54,647 nucleotides of DNA, taken from positions 1 through 54,647 of the IMG/VR virus record IMGVR_UViG_3300048589_001642; one strand, 5' to 3'. Source of the DNA: a virus. Taxonomy: Duplodnaviria; Caudoviricetes. Positions 1 through 54,494 of this stretch are shown piece by piece. The translations under genes and the position numbers were made by a program. The notes below the pieces were generated by a model. The model made no database searches. It was not told where the DNA came from and saw only the letters and a list, made by a program, of their open reading frames with translations. Each line of letters opens with the position of its first letter. Within the stretch, counting starts at the first letter, position 1.

Positions 1-228
1 GTCCCCCGCGGCGTCCCCCGCGGCGGCCCTCGCGGCGTCCCACGCGGCGTCCCACGCGGCGTCCCCCGCGGCTTCCCCCGCGGCGTCCCTCGCGGCGTCC
101 CTCGCGGCGTCCCCCGCGGCGTCCCTCGCGGCGGCCCTCGCGGCGGCCCTCGCGGCGGCCCTCGCGGCGGCCCTCGCGGCGGCCCTCGCGGCGTCCCCCG
201 CGGCGTCCCACGCGGCGGCCCTCGCGGC
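1..228. repeat. 12-bp coding tandem array, at least 19 units (GDAA/WDAA/RDAA/RAAA/GEAA)
   Basis: Units gtcccccgcggc, gtcccacgcggc, gtccctcgcggc, ggccctcgcggc and ttcccccgcggc read directly. Confidence 0.98.
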
Positions 229-647
229 GTCGACGCTCGGCTTCGCCTCGCGTGCGGACGTAGTGTCGGTCAGCGCCGCGAGCTGCTCAAGAGTGTGCGC
301 ATGGTCGTTCAGACCGGCGAGCCGTAGCCATGCCGGGGTGAACTCGCGCACCAGCCAGTCCGTCGCCATCCAGGCGCGGCGCTCCTCCACCTCGGCCGTG
401 GAGCGCGTGCCCACGAGGCGTGGGATGTAGGGCAGGAGCATCTGCCGTTCCTCGTCGTTGAGCGAGTCGTTCCACGAGCGCAGGAACGCGCCGAGCACCG
501 GGCAGGCACACCTGGGGTTGTCGCTCCAGGGCTCGCCTGCGACGTAGGCGACGGCCTCCATCACGCACGCCTCGAAGGCGCCGTTCGGCTCGGAGTGAGC
601 GCCGCCAGGAGGCGCAGATCGGGGGGAAGATCACGAATGATGTTCAC
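1..647 (-). pseudogene. xDAA-repeat protein, paralog of 45062..45835; 1-nt deletion near 605; 3' end beyond the window
   Basis: GTG at 647 follows a strong RBS. The start-to-MEAVAY distance is 86 nt here versus 87 nt in the paralog. The frame from ATG 561 is open to the window edge. The indel could be a sequencing error. Confidence 0.7.
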
Positions 648-676
648 GGGGTTCCTCTTCCTCTCGTGGTGGTCGG

Positions 677-910
677 TCACTTCGCCCAGACGGCCGGGTC
701 GTATCCCGGCGCGTAGGGGTCCCACTTGGTTCCGGCCTGCTCCTCGTCGCGCCACGTCGGGCGCAGGTCGTCGAGGGCCCGGGGGTTCTGCTTCGACCCC
801 GGGCAGGGGAGCGGACCGGGGCGCATCGGGCGCTCCGAGTGAAAGCCGGTGAGGCCGCTCGGGAGAACCCGCACGATCTCGCCACAATGGGGGCAGCGTC
901 CCTCGGTCAT
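677..910 (-). CDS. Small Cys/His zinc-binding hypothetical protein
   Basis: MTEGRCPHCG...H...CPGS; start coupled to the upstream stop. Confidence 0.7.
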   Translation of the reverse strand: MTEGRCPHCGEIVRVLPSGLTGFHSERPMRPGPLPCPGSKQNPRALDDLRPTWRDEEQAGTKWDPYAPGYDPAVWAK

Positions 911-1200
911 CACAGATCCTTCCAGGGCGGGCGGACCGGGCGGTCGCGCTCGCGGGGCGGGATGATCCGGCGCTCGCGCTCGGCCGCGGCCTCGCAGAGC
1001 GTCCGGAGGTGATTGGCGACGGCGATGATCGGAGTCGCGAGACCCGTCATCGACCACTCGCCGAGGTACTCGTCGATCGCGTCCGCGAGGTCTTCGCGGG
1101 GGCAGGCCGAGGCGCGCAGCTCGTCGGCCTTCACGTCGATCGGGTGCCGCTCCGGGGGCGCCTTGCGGCGGCGCCCCCGGGCGAGGTAGGGGGTGGTCAC
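910..1200 (-). CDS. Hypothetical protein
   Basis: 96-aa ORF with high-GC codon bias, packed between neighbours. Confidence 0.7.
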   Translation of the reverse strand: MTTPYLARGRRRKAPPERHPIDVKADELRASACPREDLADAIDEYLGEWSMTGLATPIIAVANHLRTLCEAAAERERRIIPPRERDRPVRPPWKDL

Positions 1201-1204
1201 GGGA

Positions 1205-2203
1205 TCAGACGTGCGGGTCCGTGCCCGGCCCGGCCGTCCCGGTGGGCGGGGGGAAGGTCCCCTGCGATGCGTCCCACGACTCGGCCGCGGCGCGGTCGGC
1301 GTCGCTCTGCGTCGGGGCCGCCGGCATGTCGGAGGACGGGGCCGCGGCCTGCGGCGGCGGGGCGGCCGGGTACTGCGCCTCGAGCGCCTCGGCGATCGTG
1401 AAGCCGTAGCCGCGCGCGACGTCGATGACCGTCGCGGCCTTGTCGGCCGGGTAGATCCAGAGCTTCTTCTCGCGGTCGAAGGACCCGCCGAGGCCCTTCC
1501 ACATATCCCGCATCGCCGCGAAGTCGGCGTTCGAGTCGGTGCCGGACTTGACGCCGATGCGTCCGCCCTCGCCGACCATGACCCGAGCCCAGACGTCGGC
1601 CTCGAAGGTCGGCAGCTCGCCCGTCCCGGTCACGCCTTCGGCGGCCGACGAACCGCCACCGCCGCCGGATCCCTTCTGCTCGGGGTCCTCGTCGGTCGCG
1701 ATGTGGAAGAGCATCTTGTAGAGGTTCACGCGCGCGAAGCTGGACGCCTGGTTGACATGCTTCTCCGACCCCTCGGGGTCCGCCGAGTAGCCCTCGCTCG
1801 TCGCGGTCTGCGACTCCCCGCCCCCGCCGATGCGCCAGGTGACGACCATGTGCGCGTGGTGGCGGTACTGCGTGTACGGGCCATCCCGCCCGGTCTTCTC
1901 GCGCCCCTTGACGTCGGTCGTCGTCCGCGTCTTGGTCGGGATGATCGAGACGCCCTCGGCCGCGAGCAGCGGCGTCACGGCGGCGGCGAGCGCGTTGATC
2001 GAGGCGTAGGAGTAGGTCCGGTCGCCCCCGGTCATCTTGCGGTCGGCGTGGACCTGGAGCAGTCCCCCGATACGCGCGATGCGCTCGTCGAGGGTGCCGG
2101 TCCCGGGCTCGCCGAAGCGTCCCCGGTCGAGATGGATCGGGGCCGGCGCCTCGCTCTCTCCCGATCCGTGGCCGTTGGTCTGCGGTGCGGTCTGCGTCGC
2201 CAT
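1205..2203 (-). CDS. ERF-family ssDNA-annealing protein with C-terminal extension
   Basis: YSYASINALAAAVTPLLAAEGV ... QASSFARVNLYKMLFHIATDEDPE resembles the ERF pattern; strong RBS. Confidence 0.75.
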   Translation of the reverse strand: MATQTAPQTNGHGSGESEAPAPIHLDRGRFGEPGTGTLDERIARIGGLLQVHADRKMTGGDRTYSYASINALAAAVTPLLAAEGVSIIPTKTRTTTDVKGREKTGRDGPYTQYRHHAHMVVTWRIGGGGESQTATSEGYSADPEGSEKHVNQASSFARVNLYKMLFHIATDEDPEQKGSGGGGGSSAAEGVTGTGELPTFEADVWARVMVGEGGRIGVKSGTDSNADFAAMRDMWKGLGGSFDREKKLWIYPADKAATVIDVARGYGFTIAEALEAQYPAAPPPQAAAPSSDMPAAPTQSDADRAAAESWDASQGTFPPPTGTAGPGTDPHV

Positions 2204-2230
2204 TGGGCTCCTCTTCCTCGTGGCGGAATG

Positions 2231-2288
2231 TGACCTGATTAGACCACATCCGGCGACCGGAAGTCAACGTATCAGACGACCTCTTGAC
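2231..2288 (-). promoter_or_regulatory. Leftward promoter with operator-like site
   Basis: -35 TTGACT (2262-2267), 18 nt, -10-like TCTAAT (2238-2243); overlaps TGACCTGATTAGACCA at 2231-2246. Confidence 0.55.
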
Positions 2289-2398
2289 CTCCCGATTGCA
2301 AGATCCGTTGACTCTCGCCCGATGACCCTGGACCGATGGGTAGGCTCGTCGGGTTAGTCCGCGCGGAGGCGCCCGGGAACGGGTGGAGGAGACGGGTC

Positions 2399-2818
2399 AT
2401 GGCCGACTTCATCGAGAGGTCCGAGCACCTCGGAAACGCCGTCTGGATGCGGCGCGATCGCGAGCTCGGCCTCAGCCGGGAGGCGCTGGCCAGGCGACTA
2501 GGCTGGTCCCTTATCGGGGAAGGGAAGAGATCCGAGTCGGGCTGGAGTCCGAAGACCATCGTGAGGATTGAGCGCGCTCAACGCGGCGTCCGCTCGATGC
2601 AGGAACTCAACGCATTGGCCGACGCTCTCGGGTTGACCTCTGACCAACTAATCGCCAGAGTCGCGCAGGCCGAATCCACCCCGCGCACTGGAGAGGCCGA
2701 TGGGATCAGCGACGCAATCGCAGGGATCCGGGACGAGGAGCTCCGCGCCATCGTCCGGCGCATCGCTGACGACCTCGCCGGCCTCGCTCGAGCGCTCGGC
2801 GACCGAGGACCCGAGTAG
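2399..2818 (+). CDS. XRE-family HTH protein, probable immunity repressor
   Basis: RRDRELGLSREALARRLG...SPKTIVRIERAQR...LNALADALG; divergent from the ERF operon. Confidence 0.8.
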   Translation: MADFIERSEHLGNAVWMRRDRELGLSREALARRLGWSLIGEGKRSESGWSPKTIVRIERAQRGVRSMQELNALADALGLTSDQLIARVAQAESTPRTGEADGISDAIAGIRDEELRAIVRRIADDLAGLARALGDRGPE

Positions 2819-2977
2819 CGACCTCGGCTCGCTCGTCCGGGTCGCCCGCGAGGAGGCCGGCGACATGACCGAGAGCGTCCTCAGAACGACCGCGGCCCAC
2901 CTCCGGGCCCTCGCTCAGACCTTCGAGGACGAGGCCGACTCCCGGCTGACCTAGCCCCGGGCGGCGGGACCCGCGGG

Positions 2978-3256
2978 CTACCTCCGGGCGGCCTGCGGGT
3001 CCTTCGAGAAGAGCGCCTGCGCACGCTGGACCGAGACGCCAAGGCGCGCCGCGATCTGAGGGAACGTCGCGCCTGCGTCCCGCGCATCGCGCACGGCCAG
3101 CCGCAGGGCCGAGCGCGCATCCTGGAGCGCCGTCCTCGCCGCCACGACCTCGCGCATCGCGGCCTCTCGCCGAGCCTCCGCGCGCAGCGTGTCCCGGTGA
3201 GTCCTCGACAAGGCGTCGAGCGCCTCGTGAGCCCCGATCACTACCTGCGTCGCCAT
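2978..3256 (-). CDS. Small HTH DNA-binding protein
   Basis: AVRDARDAGATFPQIAARLGVSVQRAQAL; GGAGG RBS. Confidence 0.75.
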   Translation of the reverse strand: MATQVVIGAHEALDALSRTHRDTLRAEARREAAMREVVAARTALQDARSALRLAVRDARDAGATFPQIAARLGVSVQRAQALFSKDPQAARR

Positions 3257-3747
3257 AGAGGAACCTCCCGGTCGGTCGTCGTGCCTAGCGATCATGCACC
3301 TCCCCGCCTGGTGGTGTCACGGGGAAACCCGTCAGATGTTGCGGATTCGTCGCAATCTTGACCGAACGTGCGGATGTCAGGTCACGTTCAGTACGCGGAT
3401 GGGGTCCTCTTTGGTCGAGGCGTGGCGCCTCGACCGTGCCGAAGTGGTCGGGGTAGACCGACCGACTGACCCCCCCAGGAGGGTCGGGAGGGAGACCGAG
3501 AGCGCCCGCGATTCATCATCGGCAGGACGTCCGCCGACCTTGCGTGCCCCGTCGTTCGCGCGGAGTTGCCGGGGTCGGCGACGGAGGGGGGCCGCAGGCG
3601 CCCCGACCAAGACGGCCGCGGTGCCGTGCGATCCGTCCGGGACGTCTCCGGGCTGCGGCCTGGAGCTCGCAGCGGTGAGGGCCGGGTTGGGCGTAGGGAC
3701 GGCGGCGTAGCCGGCGGCCCCTAGACCGACGCGGCCCTCTGTCCGGG

Positions 3748-3891
3748 TCACGATCGGGGGTCGTCGTGCTCGGGCCGGTAGCCGTCCGGGTCCGGCAGCT
3801 CGGCCCACGGCGGGGGGTCGTAGAAGCCGTCGTCCGGCTCGCCGAGATCCCACGCCTCGGGGGTGCCCGTGTCGTCGTAGGGACCGCCCAT
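3748..3891 (-). CDS. Acidic Pro/Asp-rich mini-protein (47 aa)
   Basis: MGGPYDDTGTPEAWDLGEPDDGFYDPPPW...; TGATG coupling. Confidence 0.55.
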   Translation of the reverse strand: MGGPYDDTGTPEAWDLGEPDDGFYDPPPWAELPDPDGYRPEHDDPRS

Positions 3892-4025
3892 CAGAACGGC
3901 GGCTTGTCGGAGTCGTCGTCGTCTGACCATCCCCAGATCGACGAGTCGGGGTGCCCGCCGTTGGAGTCCTGCCAGATCCGATCGTCGCCGTACTCGTCCG
4001 GCTCGTAGGGCCAGGGGTCAGGCAT
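3891..4025 (-). CDS. Acidic Trp/Asp-rich mini-protein (44 aa)
   Basis: MPDPWPYEPDEYGDDRIW...DDDDSDKPPF; GGAGGAGG RBS. Confidence 0.6.
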   Translation of the reverse strand: MPDPWPYEPDEYGDDRIWQDSNGGHPDSSIWGWSDDDDSDKPPF

Positions 4026-4137
4026 CGTGCGCCTCCTCCTCGGGATTGCACTTCGGGCAGAACCAGACGTAGCCGAACCGCTGCTCGAGGACGGCCCGGC
4101 AGGTCTGGCAGCGGTACTCGTCATCGGCTGCGCTCAC
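4018..4137 (-). CDS. Zinc-ribbon mini-protein (39 aa, not in ORF track)
   Basis: Translated by hand: MSAADDEYRCQTCRAVLEQRFGYVWFCPKCNPEEEAHDA; GAGGGAG RBS. Confidence 0.6.
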   Translation of the reverse strand: MSAADDEYRCQTCRAVLEQRFGYVWFCPKCNPEEEAHDA

Positions 4138-4164
4138 GGCTGCGTCTCCCTCGTGGTGGATGGT

Positions 4165-4197
4165 GAGCGGGACGGGGAATAGTTCCCCGTCCCGCTC
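4165..4197 (-). terminator. Perfect 15-bp stem-loop downstream of the FtsK fusion
   Basis: gagcgggacggggaa-tag-ttccccgtcccgctc; no U-tract. Confidence 0.5.
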
Positions 4198-4254
4198 TGC
4201 CCGGGGGCGTCTCCGATCCTCAGAAGAGAGGTCGTTCGCCCGGGGCCTTGGTGG

Positions 4255-6459
4255 TCAGAAGAGCACGCCGAAGACGGCGGCGATGACGGTCGGCAGGAGA
4301 GGGACGATCTTCGGTGCGAGGAAGCCCGCGAGGTAGCGCCCGGTCGCCGTCGCGATCGCCGCCCGCGACTTCGCCCGGACGGTCGCGCGCGCGTGGCGCT
4401 TGATCCTGTAGCGGCTCCACCACTTGCGCTTCTCCCGGAGCGCCCAGAACGTCTCCTTGCGCCGGTCCTCGTCGGCCGCCGGGTCGATGCGCTTGGTCGC
4501 GCGATGGTCGGGGTTCGTGCGGCCGCGGTTGCGCCAGATCTTGAACGCCCACGGGACGAGCGTGGTCGCGACGTAGACGAGCGCCGCGAGCGCCGGCCAC
4601 TTCCACCCGCCGCCGACGATCCCGAGCCCGCCGAGCAGACCGAGCAGGAGGAGCGCACCGAAGACGACCTGATCGACGTGGACGACCTCGAGCAGCGGCG
4701 CGACGTTCTTCCGCAGCGCCGACCCGGCCGAGTCGTCGACCGTCGCCGTGCGCCGACGGATCGCGCGCGCCGTCCGCTCGCCCGCCGTCTTCGCCGCGTG
4801 ACATGACGGCTTGCCCGGCCTCATGCAGAGGAGCTGCGTGTTCTCGACGACGTCCGCGCCGCCGGCCGAGAGCATCCTCCGGTGATCGACCTGGAGCTGC
4901 CCCGCGCGCCCGCACCACCGGCAACGCCCGTTGCCCTCTGCGTGCGCCTGCCTGATGACCTTCGGGTCCCGCCTCCTGCTCCCCGCCTCCAGGTGTCCCC
5001 ACAGGTGCCGCAGGCCCCACGCCCGCAGGATCATCCTCGCGAGCCATCCCGTCGCCAACGCCCGCCCGCCCTGAGCCGCCGCCCTCCACCACGCCTCCTC
5101 TCCTACTCCCGCCCCGACCTGCCATCCCCATACCCCTTCTCTGTGTCCCCCCCCTACGGGGGGACCCACTGGCGAAGGTGTTGGATCCGGCGCGTCGGGC
5201 ACAGCCGAGAAGAGACTCGGGCGCCCACCGGGGCCGCCCCGCTCGACCTCGACGAACATCCGCGTGTGGCGCTTGCGCCCCGCCTTCTGATTCAAGAGCT
5301 GCTTCTCGAGGGTGCCGAGCGGGACGCCGGTCTCCTCGGCGACCTCCCGCCGCGAGGAGCGCGGGTGCTCGGCCAGGTGCGCCCACACCTTGCGGGCCTG
5401 ATCGTCGAGGCCGGGCGTCGGCTGGCCGTCGTCGGGGTCCTCGGGATCGGTCCCCGCGTGCCGGCGGACGAAGGGCTTCGGGTCGAATCCGAGACCGTCC
5501 CCGGCGCCCTTGAGGGCGGCGTAGTTCGCGAGGTTGATCTCGGGCACGAGGAGGCGCGCGAGCGACTTGCCGCCCATGTTCGTAGCCCACCCGTGACCGG
5601 CCGTGAGCGAGTCCCCCTCGGGCGGGATCATCCGCGCCCCGGAGTCGCCGAACATCATCTTGTAGTGGTCCTCGGTGACCTCGCCGAGGACGAGCCGCGA
5701 GGGGAACTGCTCGCGCACGAGACCGCCCGCCGTCTCGGAGACGTCCATGCGCTGATTGCCGATGACGATGACGTAGCCGGCCGAGCGCGACTTGCGGGCG
5801 ACGTGAGTGAAATCGCGGGCGACCTTCGCCTTCATCCCGTCCTTCCAGAACCCCGGCGGGAAGTCATCCGGATTCGGATTCATCAGGTCGGAGAGCTCGT
5901 CCACGAAGACGGCCCGGGGCCAGAGGCCGTACTCGTCCCACTCGGCCGGGGTGAGGTGCCAGATCGAGACCTCGCCGTCCTCGCGCTCGATGCCCGAGTC
6001 GTCGACCCGGTCCTTCACGATCTCGCCGAGGAGGCGGTTGCGCGCCTGCGTGTCCCGGGCGATGTCGGCCAGGGCGTCGAGCAGATCCTCGGGCTCCTTC
6101 ACGAGGACCGCCCCCATGTTCTGAGCGGGCTGGTAGGCCGCCGTCGCCTTCGGGTCGAGGATCAGCGTCTCGCCCCATCCCGCCCCGAGGAGCTGATTCC
6201 AGAGGGTCGGGTAGATCGCCCAGGTCGCGAGCAGTTGCGTCTTGCCGCCGCCGGAGGTACCGGAGACGATCGCCCTCGAGCCGTCGCGGCCGACGTCCCA
6301 CCACAGACGCTCGCGCTGGCCGACGACGTAAGCGGCGACGCAGAACTGCCCCGGCTCGGCGACGTCGATCACCTCCCACTTCACCTTCCGGGGGAGGTTC
6401 GTCTTGCCGAGCATCACGTCGCCGCGGACGGCGCGCTCTCTGCGGATGAGGTCGAGCAT
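4255..6459 (-). CDS. FtsK/SpoIIIE-like ATPase - HTH - HNH nuclease - transmembrane fusion (about 734 aa)
   Basis: Walker A GTSGGGKT, LILDPK, Walker B VFVDE, IGNQR; HTH SSRREVAEETGVPLGTL; HNH CRWC..VDH...GGADVVENTQLLC...CHAAKT; hydrophobic helices at the C-terminus. Confidence 0.8.
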   Translation of the reverse strand: MLDLIRRERAVRGDVMLGKTNLPRKVKWEVIDVAEPGQFCVAAYVVGQRERLWWDVGRDGSRAIVSGTSGGGKTQLLATWAIYPTLWNQLLGAGWGETLILDPKATAAYQPAQNMGAVLVKEPEDLLDALADIARDTQARNRLLGEIVKDRVDDSGIEREDGEVSIWHLTPAEWDEYGLWPRAVFVDELSDLMNPNPDDFPPGFWKDGMKAKVARDFTHVARKSRSAGYVIVIGNQRMDVSETAGGLVREQFPSRLVLGEVTEDHYKMMFGDSGARMIPPEGDSLTAGHGWATNMGGKSLARLLVPEINLANYAALKGAGDGLGFDPKPFVRRHAGTDPEDPDDGQPTPGLDDQARKVWAHLAEHPRSSRREVAEETGVPLGTLEKQLLNQKAGRKRHTRMFVEVERGGPGGRPSLFSAVPDAPDPTPSPVGPPVGGGHREGVWGWQVGAGVGEEAWWRAAAQGGRALATGWLARMILRAWGLRHLWGHLEAGSRRRDPKVIRQAHAEGNGRCRWCGRAGQLQVDHRRMLSAGGADVVENTQLLCMRPGKPSCHAAKTAGERTARAIRRRTATVDDSAGSALRKNVAPLLEVVHVDQVVFGALLLLGLLGGLGIVGGGWKWPALAALVYVATTLVPWAFKIWRNRGRTNPDHRATKRIDPAADEDRRKETFWALREKRKWWSRYRIKRHARATVRAKSRAAIATATGRYLAGFLAPKIVPLLPTVIAAVFGVLF

Positions 6460-6641
6460 CAGTCGTCGAAGTAGCCGCCGAAGAGACCGTCGAGGATCCC
6501 CTCGCGCTCTCCGCTCCCCATGCAGTCCGGGCAGAGGCACATCGCGCCGTTGCCCGAGAACGCCGGCTCGCCGATCCCGAGGGCCGAGTTGCCCTCGGCC
6601 GGGCCCTCGCCCATGCCGATGCACGTCCAGCACATGCCCAT
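6459..6641 (-). CDS. CxxCxGxG zinc-finger mini-protein
   Basis: CWTCIGMG ... CPDCMGSG; TGATG coupling on both sides. Confidence 0.7.
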   Translation of the reverse strand: MGMCWTCIGMGEGPAEGNSALGIGEPAFSGNGAMCLCPDCMGSGEREGILDGLFGGYFDD

Positions 6642-7012
6642 CAGTACCTCCCTACCCGCTCCGGTGCCGGGAGAGCGGGCGTGTGGCGCTCCGCGGCCTT
6701 CCCGGTACGGATCAATAGGTCGGCCAACGTCTGGGCCTCAGATCGCCCCTCCGCCTCGCAGTAGGTGATCTCGCCCTCGGAGTCCACGGAGGCCAGAGCG
6801 TCGGCCCCGTCCTGTCGCTCGAAGCGCGGATAGGCCCGCTCCCCCGACCCCGGCTCCGCCGCGCGGGCGACCGCGACGACGAAGGCCGGAGCCGAGACGG
6901 CACCCGAGCGGACCGCGAGTGCCGGCCCGCCGCCGAGGACGAGCCGGTAGACGGCCCATCCCTGGTCGGCGAGCGCGGCCTCGACGAGATGTCGAGTGCG
7001 GTCGGGCGTCAT
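6641..7012 (-). CDS. Hypothetical protein
   Basis: ATGA coupling; MTPDRTRHLV... Confidence 0.65.
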   Translation of the reverse strand: MTPDRTRHLVEAALADQGWAVYRLVLGGGPALAVRSGAVSAPAFVVAVARAAEPGSGERAYPRFERQDGADALASVDSEGEITYCEAEGRSEAQTLADLLIRTGKAAERHTPALPAPERVGRY

Positions 7013-7425
7013 CTGAACTCCACGTCCTCGCCGGATTCGTGAGCCATGACGAGACCCGCGATGAACTGCTCGCACTTCGCCCGGTCCGTGTGGGTCGGGT
7101 ACGGACCGTCGTTGCTCAGAGCGGGCAGTAGCTCGCGCAGGCGCTCGGCCAGCGGGAGCGTGTGCCGGTGGCGGATCCACCCGTCGCAGTCCGAGTGGTC
7201 GATGAGCACCCGCAGCGGGTCAGCGGGCTCGCCCTCGGGCCAGTCGCCATCCATGCGCGTCAGCGGGAAGTCGGTCGCCTCCCACCACGCCGGGACGGGT
7301 CGCGGCTCCTCGGGTCGGCTGCTCGGGACGACCTCCACGTCAGCGGCGGCGCAGAGCGCGAGCCGCCACCGCATGAACGCCGAGTACGGTCCGTGCCAGC
7401 AGTCGTGAGTGGTGTCGAGCCCCAC
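7009..7425 (-). CDS. Phage hypothetical protein
   Basis: MGLD...YSAFMRWR...LIDHSDCDG...GEDVEF; good codon bias. Confidence 0.75.
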   Translation of the reverse strand: MGLDTTHDCWHGPYSAFMRWRLALCAAADVEVVPSSRPEEPRPVPAWWEATDFPLTRMDGDWPEGEPADPLRVLIDHSDCDGWIRHRHTLPLAERLRELLPALSNDGPYPTHTDRAKCEQFIAGLVMAHESGEDVEFR

Positions 7426-7427
7426 GT

Positions 7428-7625
7428 CTACGCCCCGCGACGACGCGACGTGCTGGCGGCGCGCGGCGTGCGCGGTGCGCCGTGGCGCGCGTTGAGGTAG
7501 GCCAGCACGCGAGCCCGCGCGTCGTCGGGGAGCGAGGAGAGCCGCTCGTTCGTCTCGGTGAGCGCCGCCATCTCGGAATCGAAGGCGTCGACGGGCGTGT
7601 GCTGCTCGGGGGTCATGGTGTCCAT
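7428..7625 (-). CDS. Hypothetical protein
   Basis: AAGGAG RBS before MDTMTPEQ; LSSLPDDARARVLAYLNARHG. Confidence 0.65.
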   Translation of the reverse strand: MDTMTPEQHTPVDAFDSEMAALTETNERLSSLPDDARARVLAYLNARHGAPRTPRAASTSRRRGA

Positions 7626-7694
7626 GTGGATCTCCTTCGTCGTGTCGGTCGATGGTCGCATCGGTACTCGGTCGTTCTCGCTTCGCCAGAGTCG

Positions 7695-8042
7695 CTAGTC
7701 GGCGTCACCTCCCGGGCCGATGACGCGCACGTCGGCGTCGATGATCTCGCCCGTCTCCGGATGCCACGCACGCGCCGGCCGGTCGCCGGTCACGCGCACC
7801 TCGACGACGACGTGCTGCGGTCGCTCGCGGATGTACTCCGTTCGCGGCGTCGGCGGAACGAACGAGCGCGACGGCTCCGACGGGTGCGAGTGCTCGACCT
7901 CGATCGCCACGAAGACGATCGTGAGCACCACCCACACGCCGAGCGCAACGCGCAGGGAGATCCCCGGAGGGACGACGACGAACGCAGCGGAGATCGCGCC
8001 CGCGACTGCGGCGGCCGCCTTGATCGGCGGGTCGCCCGTCAC
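7695..8042 (-). CDS. Membrane protein (two hydrophobic segments)
   Basis: AAAAVAGAISAAFVVV / VALGVWVVLTIVFVAI; GTGA coupling. Confidence 0.6.
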   Translation of the reverse strand: MTGDPPIKAAAAVAGAISAAFVVVPPGISLRVALGVWVVLTIVFVAIEVEHSHPSEPSRSFVPPTPRTEYIRERPQHVVVEVRVTGDRPARAWHPETGEIIDADVRVIGPGGDAD

Positions 8043-8405
8043 GACGCACGCCCGAGCGCGTCGCGCGTCGTCGCGTAGGCGTCGTGCGCGCCGAGGTCGA
8101 AGCGCTCCGACCATGCGACGACGACGAGCGGTGCGTCGACCTCCAGGTGCAGGAGCCGAGTGCCGCGACGCCACACGCGCAGACGAGTACCGGAGAACTC
8201 CGGCTCGAGCGAGCGCGGTGCGCCGTCGGCGATCGACGCGCAGATCGGGCAGAACCACGGATTGAGCCGCACGCCGGCGAGCAGGTCGTCGAGCGGCGCG
8301 AGCGCGAGCCGCGCGCGAGCGTCGTTGACGAAACGCAGGACGGCGGCGACGTGTAGGTCAACGGGGGTGGCGAGCACAGCCGCGCCCCGGATTCATGTTC
8401 GTCAT
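8039..8405 (-). CDS. Hypothetical protein; apparent +1 indel near 8388
   Basis: The RBS-linked ATG at 8405 is one base out of frame with the 8039..8377 ORF. Confidence 0.55.
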
Positions 8406-8434
8406 CGAGGGTTCCTCTTCCTCACGTTGACGAC

Positions 8435-8492
8435 GGAACGTGTGTTCCGAATGTGTGCGCCGAGGCTACTGCCCGTCGCGGCGCGATGTCAA
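8435..8492 (-). promoter_or_regulatory. SigA-type promoter with downstream SOS (LexA) box
   Basis: TTGACA (8487-8492)-N18-TAGCCT (8463-8468); GAAC-GTGT-GTTC at 8436-8447. Confidence 0.75.
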
Positions 8493-8525
8493 CCTATCGC
8501 GCGACCTCTTGACTTCCGACATACA

Positions 8526-8580
8526 GAGGGACCGGCGGGGAGGAACCCAACGCTCGCGCGTGAGGACCCGCCGGTCCCTC
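8526..8580 (-). terminator. 14-bp stem-loop at the end of the late/lysis operon
   Basis: gagggaccggcggg ... cccgccggtccctc with a 27-nt loop. Confidence 0.5.
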
Positions 8581-8610
8581 GATCACTCTAACCCGAGATC
8601 GGGCGTCGCG

Positions 8611-8916
8611 TCACTCCGCGGGGGGGACGCGCTCCTCGATCGTCTGCTCGATGCCGACCCCGTCGAGCGCCGGCGGGCTCGCGGCGTTGCGGACCATGTA
8701 TCCGAACGGGACCGAGAGCAGGAGGCCGGTCGACCCGACGAGCACGGCGACGATTCCGGCGCCCGATGCGTCCGGGATCCCCTCCGCGCCGACGGTCAGG
8801 AGACCCTCGCGCAGTCCGTCCCACAGAACGAGGAGGAGGGTCCAGAGGATGGTGCTCGCCGCCTGACCGAGTGCGGACGCGGTCAGCTTCGGATCTACTG
8901 CGAGGTTCGTGTTCAC
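8611..8916 (-). CDS. Holin-like membrane protein
   Basis: Two hydrophobic segments, PKLTA N-terminus, GY motif; directly after the endolysin. Confidence 0.6.
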   Translation of the reverse strand: MNTNLAVDPKLTASALGQAASTILWTLLLVLWDGLREGLLTVGAEGIPDASGAGIVAVLVGSTGLLLSVPFGYMVRNAASPPALDGVGIEQTIEERVPPAE

Positions 8917-8931
8917 GTCGTCGTGTCTCCC

Positions 8932-9786
8932 TTATCGGTTGGCGAGGACCCACGGCCAGAGCACGGGGCCCGGGCATGAGGTCGAGGTCCACTCGAGGTG
9001 CCCGGTGCGTCGGCCCCATCGCTCATGCGTCCGCAACGCGACGAGCGTCGCGTACTGCTCGGGCGTCGGCGTCGGCGAGTCGGTGCCCGCGAGGATCAGC
9101 ACGCCGGGGTAGCCGTTGGCCGTGTTGTTGCCCGAGTGCGCGCCGCGCACGTTGCGCCCGCGGCCGACGAGGACCGTGCAGAGACCGCCGCGCGCGGAGT
9201 CGCGCAGGATGATCCAGTTGTATCCGATGTCGCTCCAGTCGAGCCGGTCGTGGTGGTAGTGCGCGAACGAGAGCGTCTGCGCGATGCCCGCCTCGAGTCC
9301 GATCGCCGCGCGGCCGGGGCCGAACCAGTGGACGACGTGCGGAACCCCGGGGGCGTGGATCGCGGGCGTGACCGCGCGCGGCGCGAAGTCGCACCAGTCG
9401 TTGCGCTCGATGATCCGGAGCGCTCCGCCCGAGGGGGGCCGCTCGGTCGCCGCGATCTCCGCGAGCCTCTGCTGATAGCGGTCCGCCGCCTTCGCGCGCT
9501 CCAGGTCGCCGCGCCGGGCGACCCAATCGCCGGGCACCTTGCGGAAGCCGAGGAGGACGAGCAGCTCGTCGGCGACGATCGCGCCGGCGATGTGCGGGGC
9601 CCCCGCGCGCTCCTGCCATGTCGAGACGGCGAGCGAGGTCCGCGCGCCGTAGGTCCCGTCCTGCTCGATCCCGTAGCCGCGCAGTCGGTGCTGCACGTCA
9701 GCGACGAGCGCCGCGTTGCCGTCGCTCGACGCGCGCCCCATGCGCGGCGTCGTGAGCTTGAGCGTGACGATCCTCGGTCGGCTCAT
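8932..9786 (-). CDS. Endolysin: PG-binding domain plus amidase_2
   Basis: DGTYGARTSLAVSTWQ; HW, WSDIGYNWII, GRG..RGAH, GH...TSCPG. Confidence 0.9.
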   Translation of the reverse strand: MSRPRIVTLKLTTPRMGRASSDGNAALVADVQHRLRGYGIEQDGTYGARTSLAVSTWQERAGAPHIAGAIVADELLVLLGFRKVPGDWVARRGDLERAKAADRYQQRLAEIAATERPPSGGALRIIERNDWCDFAPRAVTPAIHAPGVPHVVHWFGPGRAAIGLEAGIAQTLSFAHYHHDRLDWSDIGYNWIILRDSARGGLCTVLVGRGRNVRGAHSGNNTANGYPGVLILAGTDSPTPTPEQYATLVALRTHERWGRRTGHLEWTSTSCPGPVLWPWVLANR

Positions 9787-10180
9787 GGGTTCCTCTCCCC
9801 TTCCACGGGTGGGCATTGCGGCGAGAGCGCGAGCGCGGCCTCGATCACCTCGACGGTCGCCTCGACGATCTGCGCGTCACCCGGCAGGCCGCGCGTGCTG
9901 ACGACGACGCGCACGTTCCCGAAGTAGTTCGCGAGCGAGCACGCGAGCGTGTCGATGTCGGTGATCGGCACGCGAGCGTGTCGATGTCGGTGATCCGCTC
10001 GCGTCGGTCCTCCGCCTGCGCGGCGAAGACGCGCTCGAGGGCGTCGCGGTCGGCAGTCGCGTCGCCGACGATGTCCTGTATCCGGATGAAGCCGAAGACC
10101 ATCCCGGCCGCGAGGAGGACGTAGGCGATGACGAGACCGTGCCGCCGCGAGAACCGCGCGACGTGTCGGTGCGGGCTCAC
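9783..10180 (-). pseudogene. Lysis-region membrane protein frameshifted by a 29-nt tandem duplication
   Basis: gcacgcgagcgtgtcgatgtcggtgatc at 9939-9966 and 9968-9995; removing one copy joins the two ORF halves. Confidence 0.75.
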
Positions 10181-16859: not shown

Positions 16860-19800
16860 CTACCTCCTCGCCGCGCGGGCGGTTCGATTCGTGAGGGCAC
16901 GGGCGATCGAGTCGCCGAGCACCTGCGGATCCACGCCCGGCGCGGCGACGACGATCGACTCGACGACCGTCTGCGGCGGGGCGTTCGTGAAGGCGCGCTG
17001 TAGCGCCCGGAGTTCCTTGAGCGACTCGGTGTGCTCCTTCGCCCGGGCCGTGAGCTGGCGCTGCTCGCTCGCGACGATCCGGGTCCCGCCGGCCGACGAC
17101 TCCTTGCGGAACGTCTCCTCGAGCTTCTGCCGCTGCGCCGCCTGTGACTGACGGACGCGCTCCAGCTCGGAGGCGAACGAGGAGCGGAGGACGTTGCGGG
17201 TCGTGATCGCCTCGGCGATCGCCGCCTGCTGCGGGTTCTCGATGCCGGGGATGAACCCCTTCGGCAGCTTCGGAGCGCGGCCGACCGCCCCCGCCTGCGC
17301 CCGGGTCTGCCCGAGCGCGAGGTTGAAGGCATCGACGTAGGCGGTCCCGAGCTGCGCCCCGACCGCCGCGATGTTGACCCCGTTCGCCGCGAGAGTCGCG
17401 GCGACCCCGGCATTGAACTCGCCGATCTTGATGCGTCCGGCGTTGAGGTTGGCGGCGAGGTCCGCGAGCTGCTGCTGTAGCGCCGTCCTCTTCGCCTCGG
17501 TGACCTCCGCCGCGACGCGCTGCTCCTCCGAGAGGCGGGCCTGGTCCTGCCCGAGGAGGAAGCGCTCCAGCTCGAGGCGCTGCGCCCGGGCGGGGTCCTC
17601 GGCCGCGATGCGGGCGTCCTCCAGGCGGATGCGCTCGCGCTCGCGCTGGAGCGGCGAGAGCCGCGCGTTCTGCTCCGGGGTCCTCCGGGCGGCGGCGGCC
17701 GAGAGGGCGGCGAATCGCTTCTGCGCCTGCTCGCGGCCGGCCTCGGCGAGCGAGACGGCGTTGCGGAGCTGGCGCTCCTGATCGACCGCCCCCGCCGAAT
17801 CGAGGGCCGCCGAGCGCGATGCGAGCGCGCTCTCCTGCGGCCGGAAGCTCGGGGCCGCCGCGTCGATCGCCTGCGAGGCGAGGTCGGCGAGCTGCGACGC
17901 GAAGCCCGAGAGGTTCGACCGGGCGGTGAGGACCGACTCGCGCAGGGCGGAGGAGATCGCGGTCGAGATCGTCGCCCGGATCGTCGGGCCCGTGACGCGG
18001 AAACCGTCGCCGAACGCCTTCGCGGCGAGCTTCCCCTGCGTCTTCGCGTTGACGACGCCGACCCGGGCGGCGCCGCGGATCGCTGCGGCGGCGAGCGCGG
18101 CGCCCGACTTGTCGGTCTTCCCCTGCTCGGCGGCCATGCCGACCTGGAGGCCGCGGCCGATCTGCTTGCCGGTCTCGGTGGTGAGCTTCGACGGGCTCTC
18201 GACCTGCGCGCCGCGCTTGACGGCGGCCGCGCCCGCGGCGCCCGCGCGCTCACCCGCGGCGACGATCGCCGGGAGCTGCGCGTCGATGCCCCTGACGATT
18301 CCAGTCCCGAGCCCCGTCCCCGCTGTCTCCCCGCCGGCTTCCATGAGCGGCGCCGCGCTCTCGGTCCCCTTGGCCGCCGACTCGCCGCCCTTGGCGCCCT
18401 GCGCCCGGATCTGCCCGTCCCGGGACCGGAGGCCGGCGACGAATCCGTTCGCCTGCGCCTGCCCCGAGCGGAGGCCGGCCGCCCGGAGCCGACCGATCAG
18501 ACCCTCGGCCGCCTTGATCCGCTCGGTCGCGGCCCTCTTCTCCGCGCCCGTCGCCCTGCTCGAGGACGCGATCGCCTGGTCGATCTTGATAGCGCGCTGC
18601 GCCGTCGCAATGCCGTTCGCCCGCGCGGCGGCGGCGGCCGTGGTGCTCTCGCGCGCTTCGGTCTTGAGCTGCGACGCGAGCTTCTTCCCGGCGGCCGTCG
18701 TCGTATCGACCGCCTGCGCGCTCTGGCGCGCGACCGTCGCCGACTGCTGGAGCCGCGTCGATGCCGCCGCCTGCGCCCGCGCCTGACCCGAGAGCGCCTG
18801 CGCGTAGTTGAGCGCCCCCGCCCGGCCGATGTTCGTCGCGATCGCCGCCTGAACCTGCGAGCGGTTGAGGTTGCCGGTGACCGCGATGCGGGCCTGAGCC
18901 GCGGCGAGCGCCCGCCCCGACGCGGCCTGCTCGGTCTGCGCGGCCGTGAGGGCGTTGCGCGCCTGGACCGACCCCTCGCGACGAGCGAGGTTGAGGTTGT
19001 TCTCGGCCTGCGCGAGTCGGTTCTTCGCCGCGGCGAGGGCGTCGGCCTTGCCCGCCTCTCCGCCGAAGTCCCCCGCCGGCGCGGCCTGGACGCGGGCGAA
19101 CTCGCCGCGCGCGCCCTGCACGGCGCCGCGTGCGTCGTCGATGCCGACCCGGGCGTTGATGACTCCCGTGAGCGCCCCGCGCTGGCGCTCGAGGGCGGCC
19201 GTCGCGACGTCGGCGGCGGTCGCCTGGTCGCGCATCGCCTCGCTCGTCTCGCGGATCGCCTGCTCGGCGTTGCTCTCGCGAGAGGTGAGGATGAAGGCAC
19301 CGGCCGCGAGGGCGGACGCGGCGAGGATCGCAGCGGAGGCGGGGCCGCCTGCGAGCCCGACGAGCCCGGCCCCGAGTCCGCGGGCGGCTCCCGCGGCGCG
19401 CGAGAGGCTCGCCCCGGTCCGCACGGCCGCGGCCCCGGCGGCGGTCGAGGGACCGACGAGTCCGATCGCCGAGACCGAGGCGGCGCGATTGGCGGCGATC
19501 GTCGCGGCCGTCGTCGCGGCCTGCGCCTTCTGCGCCGCGGCGAATGCGGTGATCCTCGGCAGCGCGGAGCCCGCGGCGCGGCCGACCGTCCCGTAGGCGA
19601 GCGCCGTGAGCAGGAGGCCCGGCCCGAGCGGGCTCGCCGCGAGCGCCCCGAACGCCTGCGCGACCTCCCGGACGGCGGGAGAGGTCGCCGACGCCGATGC
19701 CTGGACGGCGCCGAAGACGTCGCCGGCGGTCTGGCCGAATGCCCGGACCGAGGCGATGGTCGCCGGGTCGGTGACCGCCCCCGCGATGTCGTCGGCGATC

Positions 19801-20945
19801 GAGGCCACTCCGCGCTTGAATCCCGACGAGGCGCTGATGCGATTGAGCCCGGCCTCCAGGTCGTCGGCGAGGCGGGCGACGGCGGGGGCCGCGGCGTCGC
19901 CGATCGCGAGCCCGAAGTTCTCCGCGCTGATCTTCGCCCGCTCGAACGACCGGCCGGCCGAGCGCTCGATCTGCGCGAGCGCCTTGTCGGTGACCCCCGC
20001 GGCCTTGCCCTGGTTGACGAGCTCATCGGAGAAGAGCCCCGCGCCCTTGCCCGTGAGGGTGAGAATCGCGTTGAGGCCCTCGACGTTCCCGACGAGGCGC
20101 TGCAGCTTGATCGACGACCCGCCCGAGGCGTCGCGGACGAGCTCCAGGGTCTTCTTGAGGCCGAGGCCCTTGAGCGCCGCCTGCCCGCTCGCGAATCCGG
20201 CCTTCTCGAAGACCGGCGTGATCGTCTTCTCGGCGATCTTCGACGGGGCGATGATCGACTGAATCGCCTGTCGGAGCTGCGTCGTCGCAACCGAGGCCGG
20301 AACGCCTCCGGCCGTGAGGGTCGCGATCGCCGCGCCGACCGTCTGGAGGTCCACGCCCGCGGAGGCGGCGATCGGGGCGACGTTGAAGAGCGACGAGGCG
20401 AGCTCGTCGAAGGTGACCTTACCGGCGTTGACCGTCTGGAAGAGGGAGTCGGAGACCTTCGCGGCGTCCGACGCCTTGAGCCCATAGGCGTTGATGACGG
20501 TCGTGATCCCGTCGACCGCCGTGTTGAGCTCCGTGACGCCGGCCGTCGCGGCTTTCGAGGAGACCCGGAGGAACTCGATCGCGTTGCCGCGCGGGACCCC
20601 GGCCCCGAGCGCCTCGTAGAGCCCGCCGCTGATCTCCTCCTGCGCGATGCCGACCTCGCGCGAGAGGGCGGCGACCTCGCGGGAGAACGACCCGAACGTC
20701 CTCTCGGCCTCGCCTCCGACCTGACCGAGCAGGCCGACCGACTCACGGAGGGACTTCTGGAGCGATCCGGCCGCGCCGATCTGCTGAGAGATCGTGCGGA
20801 CGAGGCCGCCCGCGACGAGCGCCCCGCCGGCGACCTTCGCGATCCGCCCGAGGGACGATCCGACCGAGCCGCGCAGCTCGGAGTCGAAGCCCCGGGAGTC
20901 GGGGCGGATCCGGACACTCGCCTCGCCGACGATGTTCGAGCTCAT
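16860..20945 (-). CDS. Tape measure protein (TP901-like core)
   Basis: 1361 aa, Ala-rich; VGEASVRIRPD N-terminus; INAYG...SDSLFQTVNAGKVTFDELA. Confidence 0.95.
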   Translation of the reverse strand: MSSNIVGEASVRIRPDSRGFDSELRGSVGSSLGRIAKVAGGALVAGGLVRTISQQIGAAGSLQKSLRESVGLLGQVGGEAERTFGSFSREVAALSREVGIAQEEISGGLYEALGAGVPRGNAIEFLRVSSKAATAGVTELNTAVDGITTVINAYGLKASDAAKVSDSLFQTVNAGKVTFDELASSLFNVAPIAASAGVDLQTVGAAIATLTAGGVPASVATTQLRQAIQSIIAPSKIAEKTITPVFEKAGFASGQAALKGLGLKKTLELVRDASGGSSIKLQRLVGNVEGLNAILTLTGKGAGLFSDELVNQGKAAGVTDKALAQIERSAGRSFERAKISAENFGLAIGDAAAPAVARLADDLEAGLNRISASSGFKRGVASIADDIAGAVTDPATIASVRAFGQTAGDVFGAVQASASATSPAVREVAQAFGALAASPLGPGLLLTALAYGTVGRAAGSALPRITAFAAAQKAQAATTAATIAANRAASVSAIGLVGPSTAAGAAAVRTGASLSRAAGAARGLGAGLVGLAGGPASAAILAASALAAGAFILTSRESNAEQAIRETSEAMRDQATAADVATAALERQRGALTGVINARVGIDDARGAVQGARGEFARVQAAPAGDFGGEAGKADALAAAKNRLAQAENNLNLARREGSVQARNALTAAQTEQAASGRALAAAQARIAVTGNLNRSQVQAAIATNIGRAGALNYAQALSGQARAQAAASTRLQQSATVARQSAQAVDTTTAAGKKLASQLKTEARESTTAAAAARANGIATAQRAIKIDQAIASSSRATGAEKRAATERIKAAEGLIGRLRAAGLRSGQAQANGFVAGLRSRDGQIRAQGAKGGESAAKGTESAAPLMEAGGETAGTGLGTGIVRGIDAQLPAIVAAGERAGAAGAAAVKRGAQVESPSKLTTETGKQIGRGLQVGMAAEQGKTDKSGAALAAAAIRGAARVGVVNAKTQGKLAAKAFGDGFRVTGPTIRATISTAISSALRESVLTARSNLSGFASQLADLASQAIDAAAPSFRPQESALASRSAALDSAGAVDQERQLRNAVSLAEAGREQAQKRFAALSAAAARRTPEQNARLSPLQRERERIRLEDARIAAEDPARAQRLELERFLLGQDQARLSEEQRVAAEVTEAKRTALQQQLADLAANLNAGRIKIGEFNAGVAATLAANGVNIAAVGAQLGTAYVDAFNLALGQTRAQAGAVGRAPKLPKGFIPGIENPQQAAIAEAITTRNVLRSSFASELERVRQSQAAQRQKLEETFRKESSAGGTRIVASEQRQLTARAKEHTESLKELRALQRAFTNAPPQTVVESIVVAAPGVDPQVLGDSIARALTNRTARAARR

Positions 20946-21193
20946 CGGCGGGCCCCGCGATCGGATGGTTCCGGGTCGGGGTCGGCGCTCCCGCCGGTCG
21001 GGTTCGAGGCCCGGCGCCGGGTGCCGGAGATCCGGCGGGTCGAGCGCGGGCCGCGGCGCTGCCAGGCCGAGACGAGCACGCGGCGACGGCGGCCGCGGCG
21101 CACGGCGAGGACGAGACGGGTCGAGCCCGCTCCCCCGCTCGCGCGCAGGCCGCGCAGGAAGTCGCCCGGGCTCGTCATCGGCCCGCCGCTCAC
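20942..21193 (-). CDS. Possible small basic protein
   Basis: Coupled at both ends, but its Arg-rich composition is typical of shadow ORFs. Confidence 0.3.
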   Translation of the reverse strand: MSGGPMTSPGDFLRGLRASGGAGSTRLVLAVRRGRRRRVLVSAWQRRGPRSTRRISGTRRRASNPTGGSADPDPEPSDRGARR

Positions 21194-32772: not shown

Positions 32773-32867
32773 TTCGGGGGTCCTCCAGGGGGTCAGTGAC
32801 GACTCGACCCGGAGCTACGCCCGGTCTTCCGATGGGGGCCGACTAGGCCGCACCCCTCACGGGCGGG

Positions 32868-39265: not shown

Positions 39266-39279
39266 CGAACGTGTGTTCT
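39266..39279. promoter_or_regulatory. SOS (LexA) box
   Basis: CGAAC-GTGT-GTTCT; core 12-mer identical to the 8436 site. Confidence 0.7.
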
Positions 39280-41696: not shown

Positions 41697-41725
41697 CGCC
41701 CACGGGTTCGGGGGGGCGAGGGTCG

Positions 41726-48085: not shown

Positions 48086-48191
48086 CGCGCTCGGTCGCGA
48101 CCTCTCGGATCGTCGGGGAGTAGCCGAGCCGGTCGGCGACCGTCGCGGCTGCCTGGAGGGTCTGACGGGCGGAGGCGCCGGGTCCTCCCAT
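48086..48191 (-). pseudogene. Fragment of a LexA-like HTH gene
   Basis: RQTLQAAATVADRLGYSPTIREVA, then an abrupt out-of-frame junction to the methyltransferase. Confidence 0.6.
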
Positions 48192-54488: not shown

Positions 54489-54494
54489 CGGGCG

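Follow-up and report, generated by a model that had tools for sequence, protein, structure and literature searches.

We describe a phage gene whose predicted product joins an FtsK-like DNA motor, an HNH nuclease and a C-terminal membrane module in one polypeptide, an architecture that is real, conserved and unusual, and whose function is probably that of a membrane-bound DNA cutter. The gene lies on the minus strand at positions 4255-6459 of IMG/VR record IMGVR_UViG_3300048589_001642, a provirus record with a completeness estimate of 93%, all 54,647 bases of which were analyzed and are referred to below as the window. Both FtsK-like motors of phages and pairs of ring ATPases with nucleases are known already; what seems to be new is their combination in one chain, fused to an HNH domain and anchored at its C-terminus. 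A first-pass annotation, made from the sequence alone, had read here a single open frame with Walker A and B motifs, a QR motif, an HNH motif with cysteine ligands and C-terminal hydrophobic helices, and all of these were located in an open reading frame (ORF) of 734 aa. It also carries a weak helix-turn-helix (HTH) of the winged type (wHTH), and its parts are as follows.

4255-6459, minus strand: the complete gene, 734 aa, encoding FtsK-like ATPase, wHTH, linker, helix, HNH and three transmembrane helices
5512-6459, minus strand: FtsK/TcpA-like motor, residues 1-316 (phrog_1358, profile, Foldseek)
5281-5412, minus strand: wHTH-like three-helix module, residues 350-393, in the position of FtsK gamma (weak Pfam match, model)
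5101-5280, minus strand: disordered Pro/Gly-rich linker, residues 394-453, which holds the C/G runs (model confidence)
5002-5100, minus strand: conserved long helix before the HNH domain, residues 454-486 (alignment, model)
4747-4965, minus strand: HNH nuclease domain, residues 499-571 (Pfam, PHROG, profile)
4258-4677, minus strand: C-terminal membrane module, residues 595-734, with TM1, TM2, a basic loop and TM3 (hydropathy, alignment)

Architecture and integrity of the fused protein

The G+C content of the ORF by codon position (0.70/0.51/0.92) indicates that it is coding. Upstream of 6459, the signal at third codon positions (GC3) switches to another frame, namely that of a 60-aa gene at 6459-6641, and the closest homolog, P0003, begins with the identical residues MLDLI, both of which place the predicted start at ATG 6459, not at GTG 6633. 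Within the motor, the Walker A motif (GTSGGGKT, residues 67-74, 6238-6261), the Walker B motif (VFVDE with D187 and E188, 5896-5913) and the sequence GNQRMD (residues 234-239, 5743-5760) are invariant in all ten aligned family members. The motor matches the FtsK/SpoIIIE-like PHROG family phrog_1358 (2.4e-11, residues 22-287), and a family profile matches both the FtsK motor structure 2iuu (6.4e-24, positions 53-282) and TcpA, the coupling protein of pCW3 (6o1w, 5.5e-22), with EccC/EssC next. AlphaFold2 modeled this part with a predicted local distance difference test score (pLDDT) of mostly 80-90, and Foldseek ranked TcpA first (1.0e-10, TMt 0.58), followed by the DNA-bound FtsK motor 6t8b_D (7.4e-10) and 2ius (4.7e-8), with HerA-NurA, DndH and SIR2-HerA far lower among the matches (9x1m, 8woc). 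The best matches in the viral structure library BFVD were phage proteins named 'DNA translocase FtsK', and these cover the motor and wHTH only. Pfam model PF01580 gave no match to the window protein, either at E<=0.001 or at E<=1; of four relatives compared with the model, three exceed the 24-bit cut-off (P0004, 29.0; P0009, 28.3; P0016, 29.0) and P0003 falls below it (20.2). Likewise, Pfam detected no FtsK_4TM, FtsK_alpha or FtsK_gamma (PF09397) in the protein, and an N-terminal hydrophobic segment is absent as well. We regard the motor as a divergent FtsK-family member, which is neither FtsK proper, nor TraB, nor a catalogued defence protein.

The HTH is the weakest element of the protein and is optional in the family. 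A reading of this region as HTH agrees with a model of three helices (351-364, 370-377 and 381-393; pLDDT 64-79) and with weak Pfam matches to HTH_24 (E 0.0054) and DprA_WH (0.044), but the HTH_24 score of 16.7 bits stays below the cut-off of 21.9, and of the 10 aligned members just three (P0002, P0003 and P0004) have the module. Searches of the ESM Atlas aligned residues 1-420 to FtsK alpha-beta-gamma clusters by structure (TM 0.41-0.42) and found FtsK clusters and actinobacterial clusters that combine FtsK with a MarR/IclR-type wHTH nearest by features (scores 0.82), all of these serving as leads only. The position of the wHTH after the motor, just as in FtsK gamma and TraB, also narrows the earlier proposal that the order of FtsK and TraB is inverted here, since this holds solely for the membrane anchor.

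Pfam HNH (PF01844) matches residues 513-559 with 23.1 bits against a cut-off of 21.4, and twelve HNH PHROGs match at approximately residues 495-575. The motif is laid out as CxxC at 513-516, DH at 525-526, N540, C545/C553 and H554; C513, C516, H526, N540, C553 and H554 are invariant in 10/10 aligned members and C545 nearly so. Over this part, the family profile matches McrA (6ghc, 9e-9), IscB and ScoMcrA, while the core, modeled with pLDDT 85-90, aligns motif by motif with ScoMcrA 5zmm. The catalytic motifs of the nuclease are intact. The helix that precedes it (pLDDT 69-84) has conserved residues R475, L478 and R484. Toward the C-terminus, hydrophobic segments lie at 598-616, 623-641 and 716-734, with a 59-residue loop (647-705) carrying 19 K/R vs 7 D/E; a G-(I/L/V)-D motif in this loop and YLAG at TM3 are conserved, G712 is invariant, and all ten fused relatives possess C-terminal hydrophobic segments. 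The positive-inside rule would place the basic loop in the cytoplasm together with the ATPase and HNH domains, and the C-terminus on the outside.

To identify relatives, 1.84 billion cluster representatives were searched exhaustively with phmmer (HMMER), which returned 65 proteins at E<=0.001, query included (14 at <=1e-10 and 6 at <=1e-30). Sixteen were fetched as sequence; the other 49, judged by length and matched range, are HNH-only or ATPase-only. The order of ATPase, HNH and C-terminal transmembrane helices recurs in ten of the sixteen (P0003, P0004, P0005, P0006, P0009, P0010, P0011, P0013, P0014 and P0016), and these fused proteins come from independent assemblies of several sources. 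Two of them, P0003 (733 aa, 50% identity) and P0004 (723 aa, 34%), align with the window protein from end to end in a single stretch, with the linker in frame.

It was conceivable that the fusion is an artefact, in which an error in the C/G runs (5147-5163) merged an ATPase-HTH gene with an HNH-transmembrane gene. The homopolymer runs themselves could be cited for this, as could the dip of GC3 to 0.62-0.80 within the linker and the short HNH-transmembrane proteins P0008 and P0018 in the database. However, the dip is confined to ~5259-5140, GC3 is 0.90 or higher on either side of the linker without a change of frame, and P0003 passes through the runs in frame (PVG...GWQ.G.G). The apparent split forms are also not convincing as separate genes: P0007 is labelled 'partial' by NCBI, P0008, P0012 and P0018 are found on contigs of just 1191, 1768 and 1220 nt, respectively, and P0018 closely resembles the C-terminus of the fused P0016. 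A further protein, P0015, stops within the HNH motif. With frame and GC3 continuous, homologs in frame and ten relatives fused, the sequences indicate that the fusion is genuine and produces one polypeptide, as first proposed, and no indel is evident at 5147-5163. The artefact is largely refuted and we would now consider it exceedingly improbable. The linker is also of some interest in itself. Residues 388-453 were modeled with pLDDT <50, and the coding sequence holds an 8-bp G/C hairpin at ~5147-5166 formed by the C6/G8 runs (minimum free energy [MFE] of a 56-nt segment, -27.7 kcal/mol; z = -2.4), which might cause ribosome or polymerase pausing; it is predicted not to be a frameshift site, because P0003 keeps its frame.

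One additional protein, P0017 (753 aa, encoded on a 38-kb Joint Genome Institute [JGI] contig and a near-singleton in protein databases), is permuted, with HNH at 42-87, a hydrophobic region at ~140-195 and FtsK at 414-512. The occurrence of the same three modules in another order argues for a functional coupling of pump, nuclease and membrane location. One could propose instead that the HNH domain is a selfish insertion of the homing type that happens to be in frame and has no functional coupling to its neighbors, given how common HNH homing endonucleases are among phages and how many stand-alone HNH proteins the phmmer matches include. We find this very unlikely, as the HNH domain, the preceding helix and the membrane module align in 10/10 members, even at identities as low as 25%, and the catalytic residues do not vary; the second module order of P0017 also counts against it.

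The family is small, rare and unnamed in the sources examined. A tblastn search with the whole protein found nothing at 1e-5 among 50,697 GenBank phage records and, at the same threshold, nothing among 72,556 plasmids except four weak Enterococcus FtsK matches, all ATPase-only and each covering 14% of the query. Scanning IMG/VR with a family profile (A1) yielded three loci, each HNH-only or ATPase-only; IMG/VR scans with A2, A3, P0016 and P0017 added 0 further members each, and a genome-contig scan with A2 likewise found 0. GTDB species genomes contributed one member (locus L005) and JGI metagenome contigs another (locus L006). In a sample of 401 genomes from the phylum of the L005 genome, the family occurred at E<=1e-30 in that genome alone, and word-index protein searches, each scoring the 8000 candidates that share most words, returned the query alone, ordinary FtsK proteins, or P0017 plus one weak match. 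Members are named only 'hypothetical protein' or 'DUF87 domain-containing protein' at their sources. Among literature titles and the beginnings of abstracts, we encountered no single-chain combination of FtsK motor, HNH and C-terminal membrane module, although an earlier description is possible. The conserved ATPase-HNH-transmembrane order of the ten relatives matches no named system, and the initial impression of an unrecognized architecture is borne out to this extent.

The operon and its genomic setting

The gene is the last of a seven-gene operon that starts, after the terminator of the late genes, at a promoter overlapped by an operator. The operon is predicted to be early and controlled by a LexA-type operator. 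Its features, in the direction of transcription, are these.

8526-8580, minus strand: terminator-like hairpin ending the late (lysis) unit; perfect inverted repeat, arms of 14 nt separated by 27 nt
8463-8492, minus strand: promoter-like TTGACA - 18 nt - TAGCCT, read from the sequence
8433-8450, minus strand: operator TCGGAACACACGTTCCGT, a LexA-type GAAC-N4-GTTC palindrome (motif count, identity with L006)
8039-8377, minus strand: small gene 1, 112 aa; GC3 0.87, no Pfam or PHROG match
7695-8042, minus strand: small gene 2, 115 aa, membrane protein; GC3 0.90, no family match
7428-7625, minus strand: small gene 3, ~65 aa; frame GC3 0.87, no family match
7009-7425, minus strand: small gene 4, 138 aa, of a phage family (phrog_11026, 1.7e-19); GC3 0.89
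6641-7012, minus strand: small gene 5, 123 aa; GC3 0.85, no family match
6459-6641, minus strand: small gene 6, 60 aa, a CxxC...CxxC mini-protein; GC3 0.95, a sub-threshold Pfam match only
4165-4197, minus strand: terminator-like hairpin ending the operon; 15-bp perfect stem, 3-nt loop

The upstream hairpin follows the putative holin gene and is located just ahead of the operon promoter. This promoter had been described as near-consensus, which is true of its -35 element (TTGACA, 8492-8487, an exact match), but not of its -10 element (TAGCCT, 8468-8463), which agrees with TATAAT at 3/6 positions, and a scan with the sigma-70 consensus did not call the site. TAGCCT is presumably compatible with the looser TANNNT form of actinobacterial -10 elements. 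The SOS box reported along with it is present as a GAAC-N4-GTTC site overlapping the promoter, with its core GAACACACGTTC at 8447-8436. The motif occurs twice in the window vs 0.31 expected (3/100 shuffles reach 2) and twice in L006 vs 0.21 expected (5/200 shuffles). In L006, TTGACG-18-TAGCCT is followed by the identical 18-mer TCGGAACACACGTTCCGT at 6570-6587, upstream of a homologous operon, even though the proteins of the two phages are merely 30-48% identical. GAAC-N4-GTTC is described as the LexA motif of Gram positive bacteria including the Actinobacteria (PMC3323433). Two other sites were seen. A second exact copy of GAACACACGTTC lies at 39267-39278 (gene strand) in the terminase-portal region, where it occupies the intergenic stretch ahead of a small ORF on the minus strand (ATG 39243); an SOS-type box is unexpected among structural genes. 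An extra GAAC-N4-GTTC site, GAACGTGGGTTC, is found at 8214-8225 of L006, ~125 nt upstream of the ATG (8350) of the homologous fused gene.

All six small genes have GC3 of at least 0.85, in keeping with the operon of six small genes that had been proposed ahead of the fused gene. The homologous operon of L006 begins with a gene (6559-6978) whose product is 45% identical to that of small gene 1. The hydrophobic segment of small gene 2 spans residues 28-46 (score 2.35). Small gene 3 has AAGGAGA ahead of ATG 7625, with an alternative ATG at 7661. Small gene 6 overlaps the ATG of the fused gene by one base and is translationally coupled to it. Zinc-ribbon-like mini-ORFs with paired CxxC are found on either side of the fused gene, at 6459-6641 and at 4024-4136 (GTG ~4136). 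For the hairpin that ends the operon, a 111-nt segment has an MFE of -59.7 kcal/mol (z = -6.1), with 0/200 shuffles folding as well; it has no T tract.

The window itself has a G+C content of 70-77%, with almost all genes on the minus strand, and the following genes place the operon within its phage (PHROG scan unless noted otherwise).

53403-54521: tyrosine-type integrase
52138-52710: RusA
50174-51076: replication-initiation O-like protein
46970-48190: DNA methyltransferase (phrog_67)
40377-41948: large terminase
37105-38880: portal
30877-32814: major head protein
16860-21206: tape measure
8932-9876: endolysin
8611-8916: putative holin (2 hydrophobic segments)
2978-3295: HTH gene (phrog_686)
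1205-2263: Erf-like annealing protein

This gene set, together with the nearest relatives of the portal, which belong to phages of Microbacterium, Gordonia, Mycobacterium and other actinobacteria (~32-35% identity), suggests a temperate siphovirus-type phage whose host is probably an actinobacterium. Downstream of the portal, the 454-aa product of 34488-35852 matches phrog_859 (2.9e-87) and phrog_18402 (1.3e-51). PHROG annotates these families under two names, 'portal protein' and 'head maturation protease', and a function in head morphogenesis is probable. Between the HTH gene and the small ORFs downstream of the fused gene, ~450 bp (3300-3750) contain no convincing ORF and are dense in inverted repeats (e.g. 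3677-3739 and 3413-3435). This region could harbor an origin, a small RNA or attP-related sites; a tRNA scan and an Rfam search over positions 1-10000 of the window found nothing.

When the three loci with readable context are compared, all are high-G+C tailed phages or prophages in which the gene follows the lysis genes and precedes an Erf-like or Sak4-like recombinase gene by 1-4 kb. In the window, the order is endolysin, putative holin, terminator-like hairpin, promoter/operator, six small genes, the fused gene, hairpin, three tiny ORFs, HTH gene and Erf. In L005, it is minor tail protein, endolysin, small genes, the fused gene and then a phrog_1366 protein with a weak Sak4-like match (3e-4). 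L006 presents tail fibre, minor tail protein, endolysin, small genes, the fused gene, an HTH homolog, an Erf homolog and a replication initiator. The promoter TTGAC(A/G)-18-TAGCCT and the identical operator are conserved in two of the three loci (the window and L006), while L005 and L006 share another small gene, which is not the first one of the window. From this synteny, it seems that the gene opens the early DNA-metabolism region behind the late genes. L005 (11.7 kb, 71% G+C) is assigned to a Chloroflexi metagenome-assembled genome, but it carries phage-like genes (minor tail, endolysin, Sak4-like) and could represent either a prophage or phage DNA that was binned wrongly. Both this phage and that of the window encode a phrog_67 DNA methyltransferase (L005 6804-7658, minus strand; window 46970-48190), which in L005 comes directly after the fused gene on the opposite strand. 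Such an enzyme might shield phage DNA from the phage's own HNH nuclease.

Candidate functions and relation to known systems

Several inferences can be made regarding how such a protein might operate. By analogy with other FtsK-family motors, it would assemble as a hexameric ring on double-stranded DNA (dsDNA). Judging from its predicted topology, the ring would hang below the cytoplasmic membrane on six flexible tethers, with an HNH domain on each between ring and membrane, and ATP-driven translocation would feed duplex DNA past the HNH domains, which would cut it. The protein resembles FtsK/SpoIIIE in its P-loop motor, by profile and fold alike, in the winged helix after the motor and in its long flexible membrane tether. 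It differs in having a C-terminal anchor of three transmembrane helices instead of the N-terminal 4TM domain, and further in its HNH nuclease, its phage origin and its lack of any Pfam match to FtsK_gamma or FtsK_alpha. TcpA of the Clostridium perfringens plasmid pCW3 (6o1w), to which the motor is most similar in structure, is part of a plasmid-borne conjugation apparatus, as opposed to the phage context found here; it has N-terminal transmembrane domains and is not known to carry a nuclease. Since the anchor would sit at the end of the motor opposite that of FtsK, SpoIIIE, TraB and TcpA, the ring may turn its other face to the membrane, and DNA could, speculatively, be reeled inward, away from the membrane, rather than pushed out.

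Among the possible roles, we tentatively favor one in which the protein destroys DNA that arrives at the membrane while the phage is being induced or grows lytically. The operon would be de-repressed by DNA damage, induction or early lytic growth, after which the protein would capture DNA as it enters at the membrane, so that competing phages or other incoming DNA would meet a 'superinfection breakdown' device. This role would explain why anchor and nuclease are both conserved, and pairs of ring ATPase and nuclease, such as DUF4297-HerA and HerA-NurA, offer a described precedent in defence and resection.

A number of observations weigh against this proposal. Firstly, the architecture is not shared by any homolog of known function. 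PADLOC-DB 2.0 gave just a weak match of mad8 to the ATPase (6.3e-6, 23.9 bits), none of the PADLOC models of HerA-nuclease systems matched the protein, and no other genes of a known defence system were identified among the scanned neighbors. Secondly, a quiet lysogen would keep an operon with a LexA-type operator repressed, which is a misfit with classical prophage-mediated defence; exclusion is compatible with such an operator only during induction or lytic growth. The operator could also be bound by a phage repressor instead of LexA; its motif has 0 matches in the 11,715 bases of L005. In the window it is flanked by CG, unlike the TC/GA flanks of actinobacterial LexA boxes. Thirdly, the recombination and replication neighbors speak for a function in the DNA metabolism of the phage itself, the conserved transmembrane motifs could belong to a channel rather than a mere anchor, and the argument for inward reeling is weak, since the tether is long and disordered. 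Even taken together, the anchor in two module orders, the early LexA-type operon and the recombination neighbors narrow the candidate functions only slightly, and a small share of the probability belongs to roles beyond those considered here.

One alternative is a host-takeover nuclease. Guided by the wHTH in those members that have one, the pump would load onto the host chromosome, and the HNH domain would shred it early in lytic growth, which would both stop host functions and supply nucleotides. The predicted early, damage-inducible operon and the predicted combination of an intact nuclease with a processive motor would suit this role, and the PHROG category of the ATPase relatives is in fact 'host takeover'. 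Yet such an enzyme would have no need of a membrane anchor, which is kept in 10/10 aligned members as well as in the permuted P0017, and the wHTH is missing in 7/10. Phage DNA would need protection too, for which the methyltransferase at 46970-48190 is at most a candidate. On balance, host takeover appears unlikely.

The repeated proximity to a recombinase raises another alternative, in which the protein is an end-resection or recombination partner of the neighboring annealing protein, a one-chain analogue of HerA-NurA that, by unwinding or translocation and cleavage at DNA ends, prepares substrates for Erf/Sak4, perhaps at a membrane-bound replication site. The Erf- or Sak4-like gene 1-4 kb downstream in 3/3 loci speaks for it, and HerA-NurA, which appears among the fold matches, is reported to be a resection machine of ring ATPase and nuclease (PMC3326311, PMC12977600). 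In common with HerA-NurA, DUF4297-HerA and SIR2-HerA, the protein combines a ring translocase of the FtsK-HerA superfamily with a nuclease, but those systems consist of two soluble polypeptides with other nuclease folds, as distinct from one membrane-anchored chain with HNH. In the window, moreover, a strong terminator-like hairpin and ~850 bp with three small ORFs and the HTH gene separate the gene from Erf. HNH enzymes are in general endonucleases or nickases, not processive exonucleases, which also counts against resection, and the conserved membrane anchoring would be left unexplained. We therefore give this role a low probability as well. The McrA-type enzymes (E. coli McrA 6ghc and ScoMcrA 5zmm), which share the HNH core motifs, are soluble and possess reader domains for modified DNA; domain scans detected no such reader in the fused protein.

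Two further alternatives involve the transport of DNA. TraB of Streptomyces and of actinomycete integrative and conjugative elements (AICE) resembles the fused protein in that a wHTH follows the motor, and it is described as a single-protein dsDNA pump at the membrane (PMC3218068). Accordingly, a hexamer with 18 transmembrane helices might provide a pore through which phage or host dsDNA moves between connected cells of a filamentous host, with the membrane protein of small gene 2 acting like plasmid Spd, such that the phage genome could spread independently of lysis. The motor does resemble conjugative FtsK-type pumps, with TcpA as its best fold match, the membrane module has conserved motifs, and the operon includes a small membrane protein; actinomycete Tra proteins, furthermore, are reported to be sufficient alone for dsDNA transfer and to form pores (PMC3218068). 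On the other side, NCBIfam plasmid_TraB (NF041214) scores 14.2 bits vs a cut-off of 800, none of the 72,556 plasmids yielded an actinomycete or Streptomyces plasmid match at 1e-5, and the context is that of a phage in all three loci. A repeat search found no clt-like array beside the gene, only two-copy, chance-like repeats, and a mycelial host would have to be assumed. A nuclease in the path of the DNA has no role in TraB-type transfer, and TraB is not known to have an HNH domain or a C-terminal transmembrane module. Such a conduit is accordingly rather improbable. We would place at a similarly low level the possibility of a DNA gate of inverted polarity, in which the hexamer is an 18-helix channel with its motor reversed relative to FtsK/SpoIIIE/TraB and conducts SOS-controlled transport of dsDNA across the membrane. 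DNA would be drawn in from outside or from a neighboring cell, or else the phage genome would be passed on without lysis, with the HNH domain making or processing an end. If this were true, a tailed phage would encode a new route for the passage of DNA. Entry of the phage's own genome, in the manner of the second-step transfer of T5, was also considered and rejected, as the operon is not near the terminase-proximal end and the protein would be absent before infection.

FtsK-like genes are reported to be widespread in actinobacteriophages, and their function is left open (PMC3706429; bioRxiv 10.1101/2024.02.16.580700). The Streptomyces phages Mandalore and Naboo carry such genes (bioRxiv 10.1101/2024.02.16.580700), as do Cluster J mycobacteriophages, whose FtsK-like proteins (e.g. 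Omega gp203) are described as having a gamma-like domain, no membrane domain and an unclear role (PMC3706429). The fused protein shares its phage-encoded FtsK-type motor with the phage proteins of phrog_1358, yet in contrast to the Cluster J proteins, for which no mention of a nuclease was met in PMC3706429, it has both a nuclease and a membrane module. The family would thus add two constraints to this wider group, a fused nuclease and an obligatory membrane anchor, which occur in two module orders and point to DNA processing at the membrane. As a compact one-gene system, it should be well suited to separating exclusion, host takeover, recombination and DNA transfer from one another. Likewise, if its inverted anchoring reverses the direction of pumping relative to the membrane, it would constitute a natural test of the orientation of FtsK-type motors.

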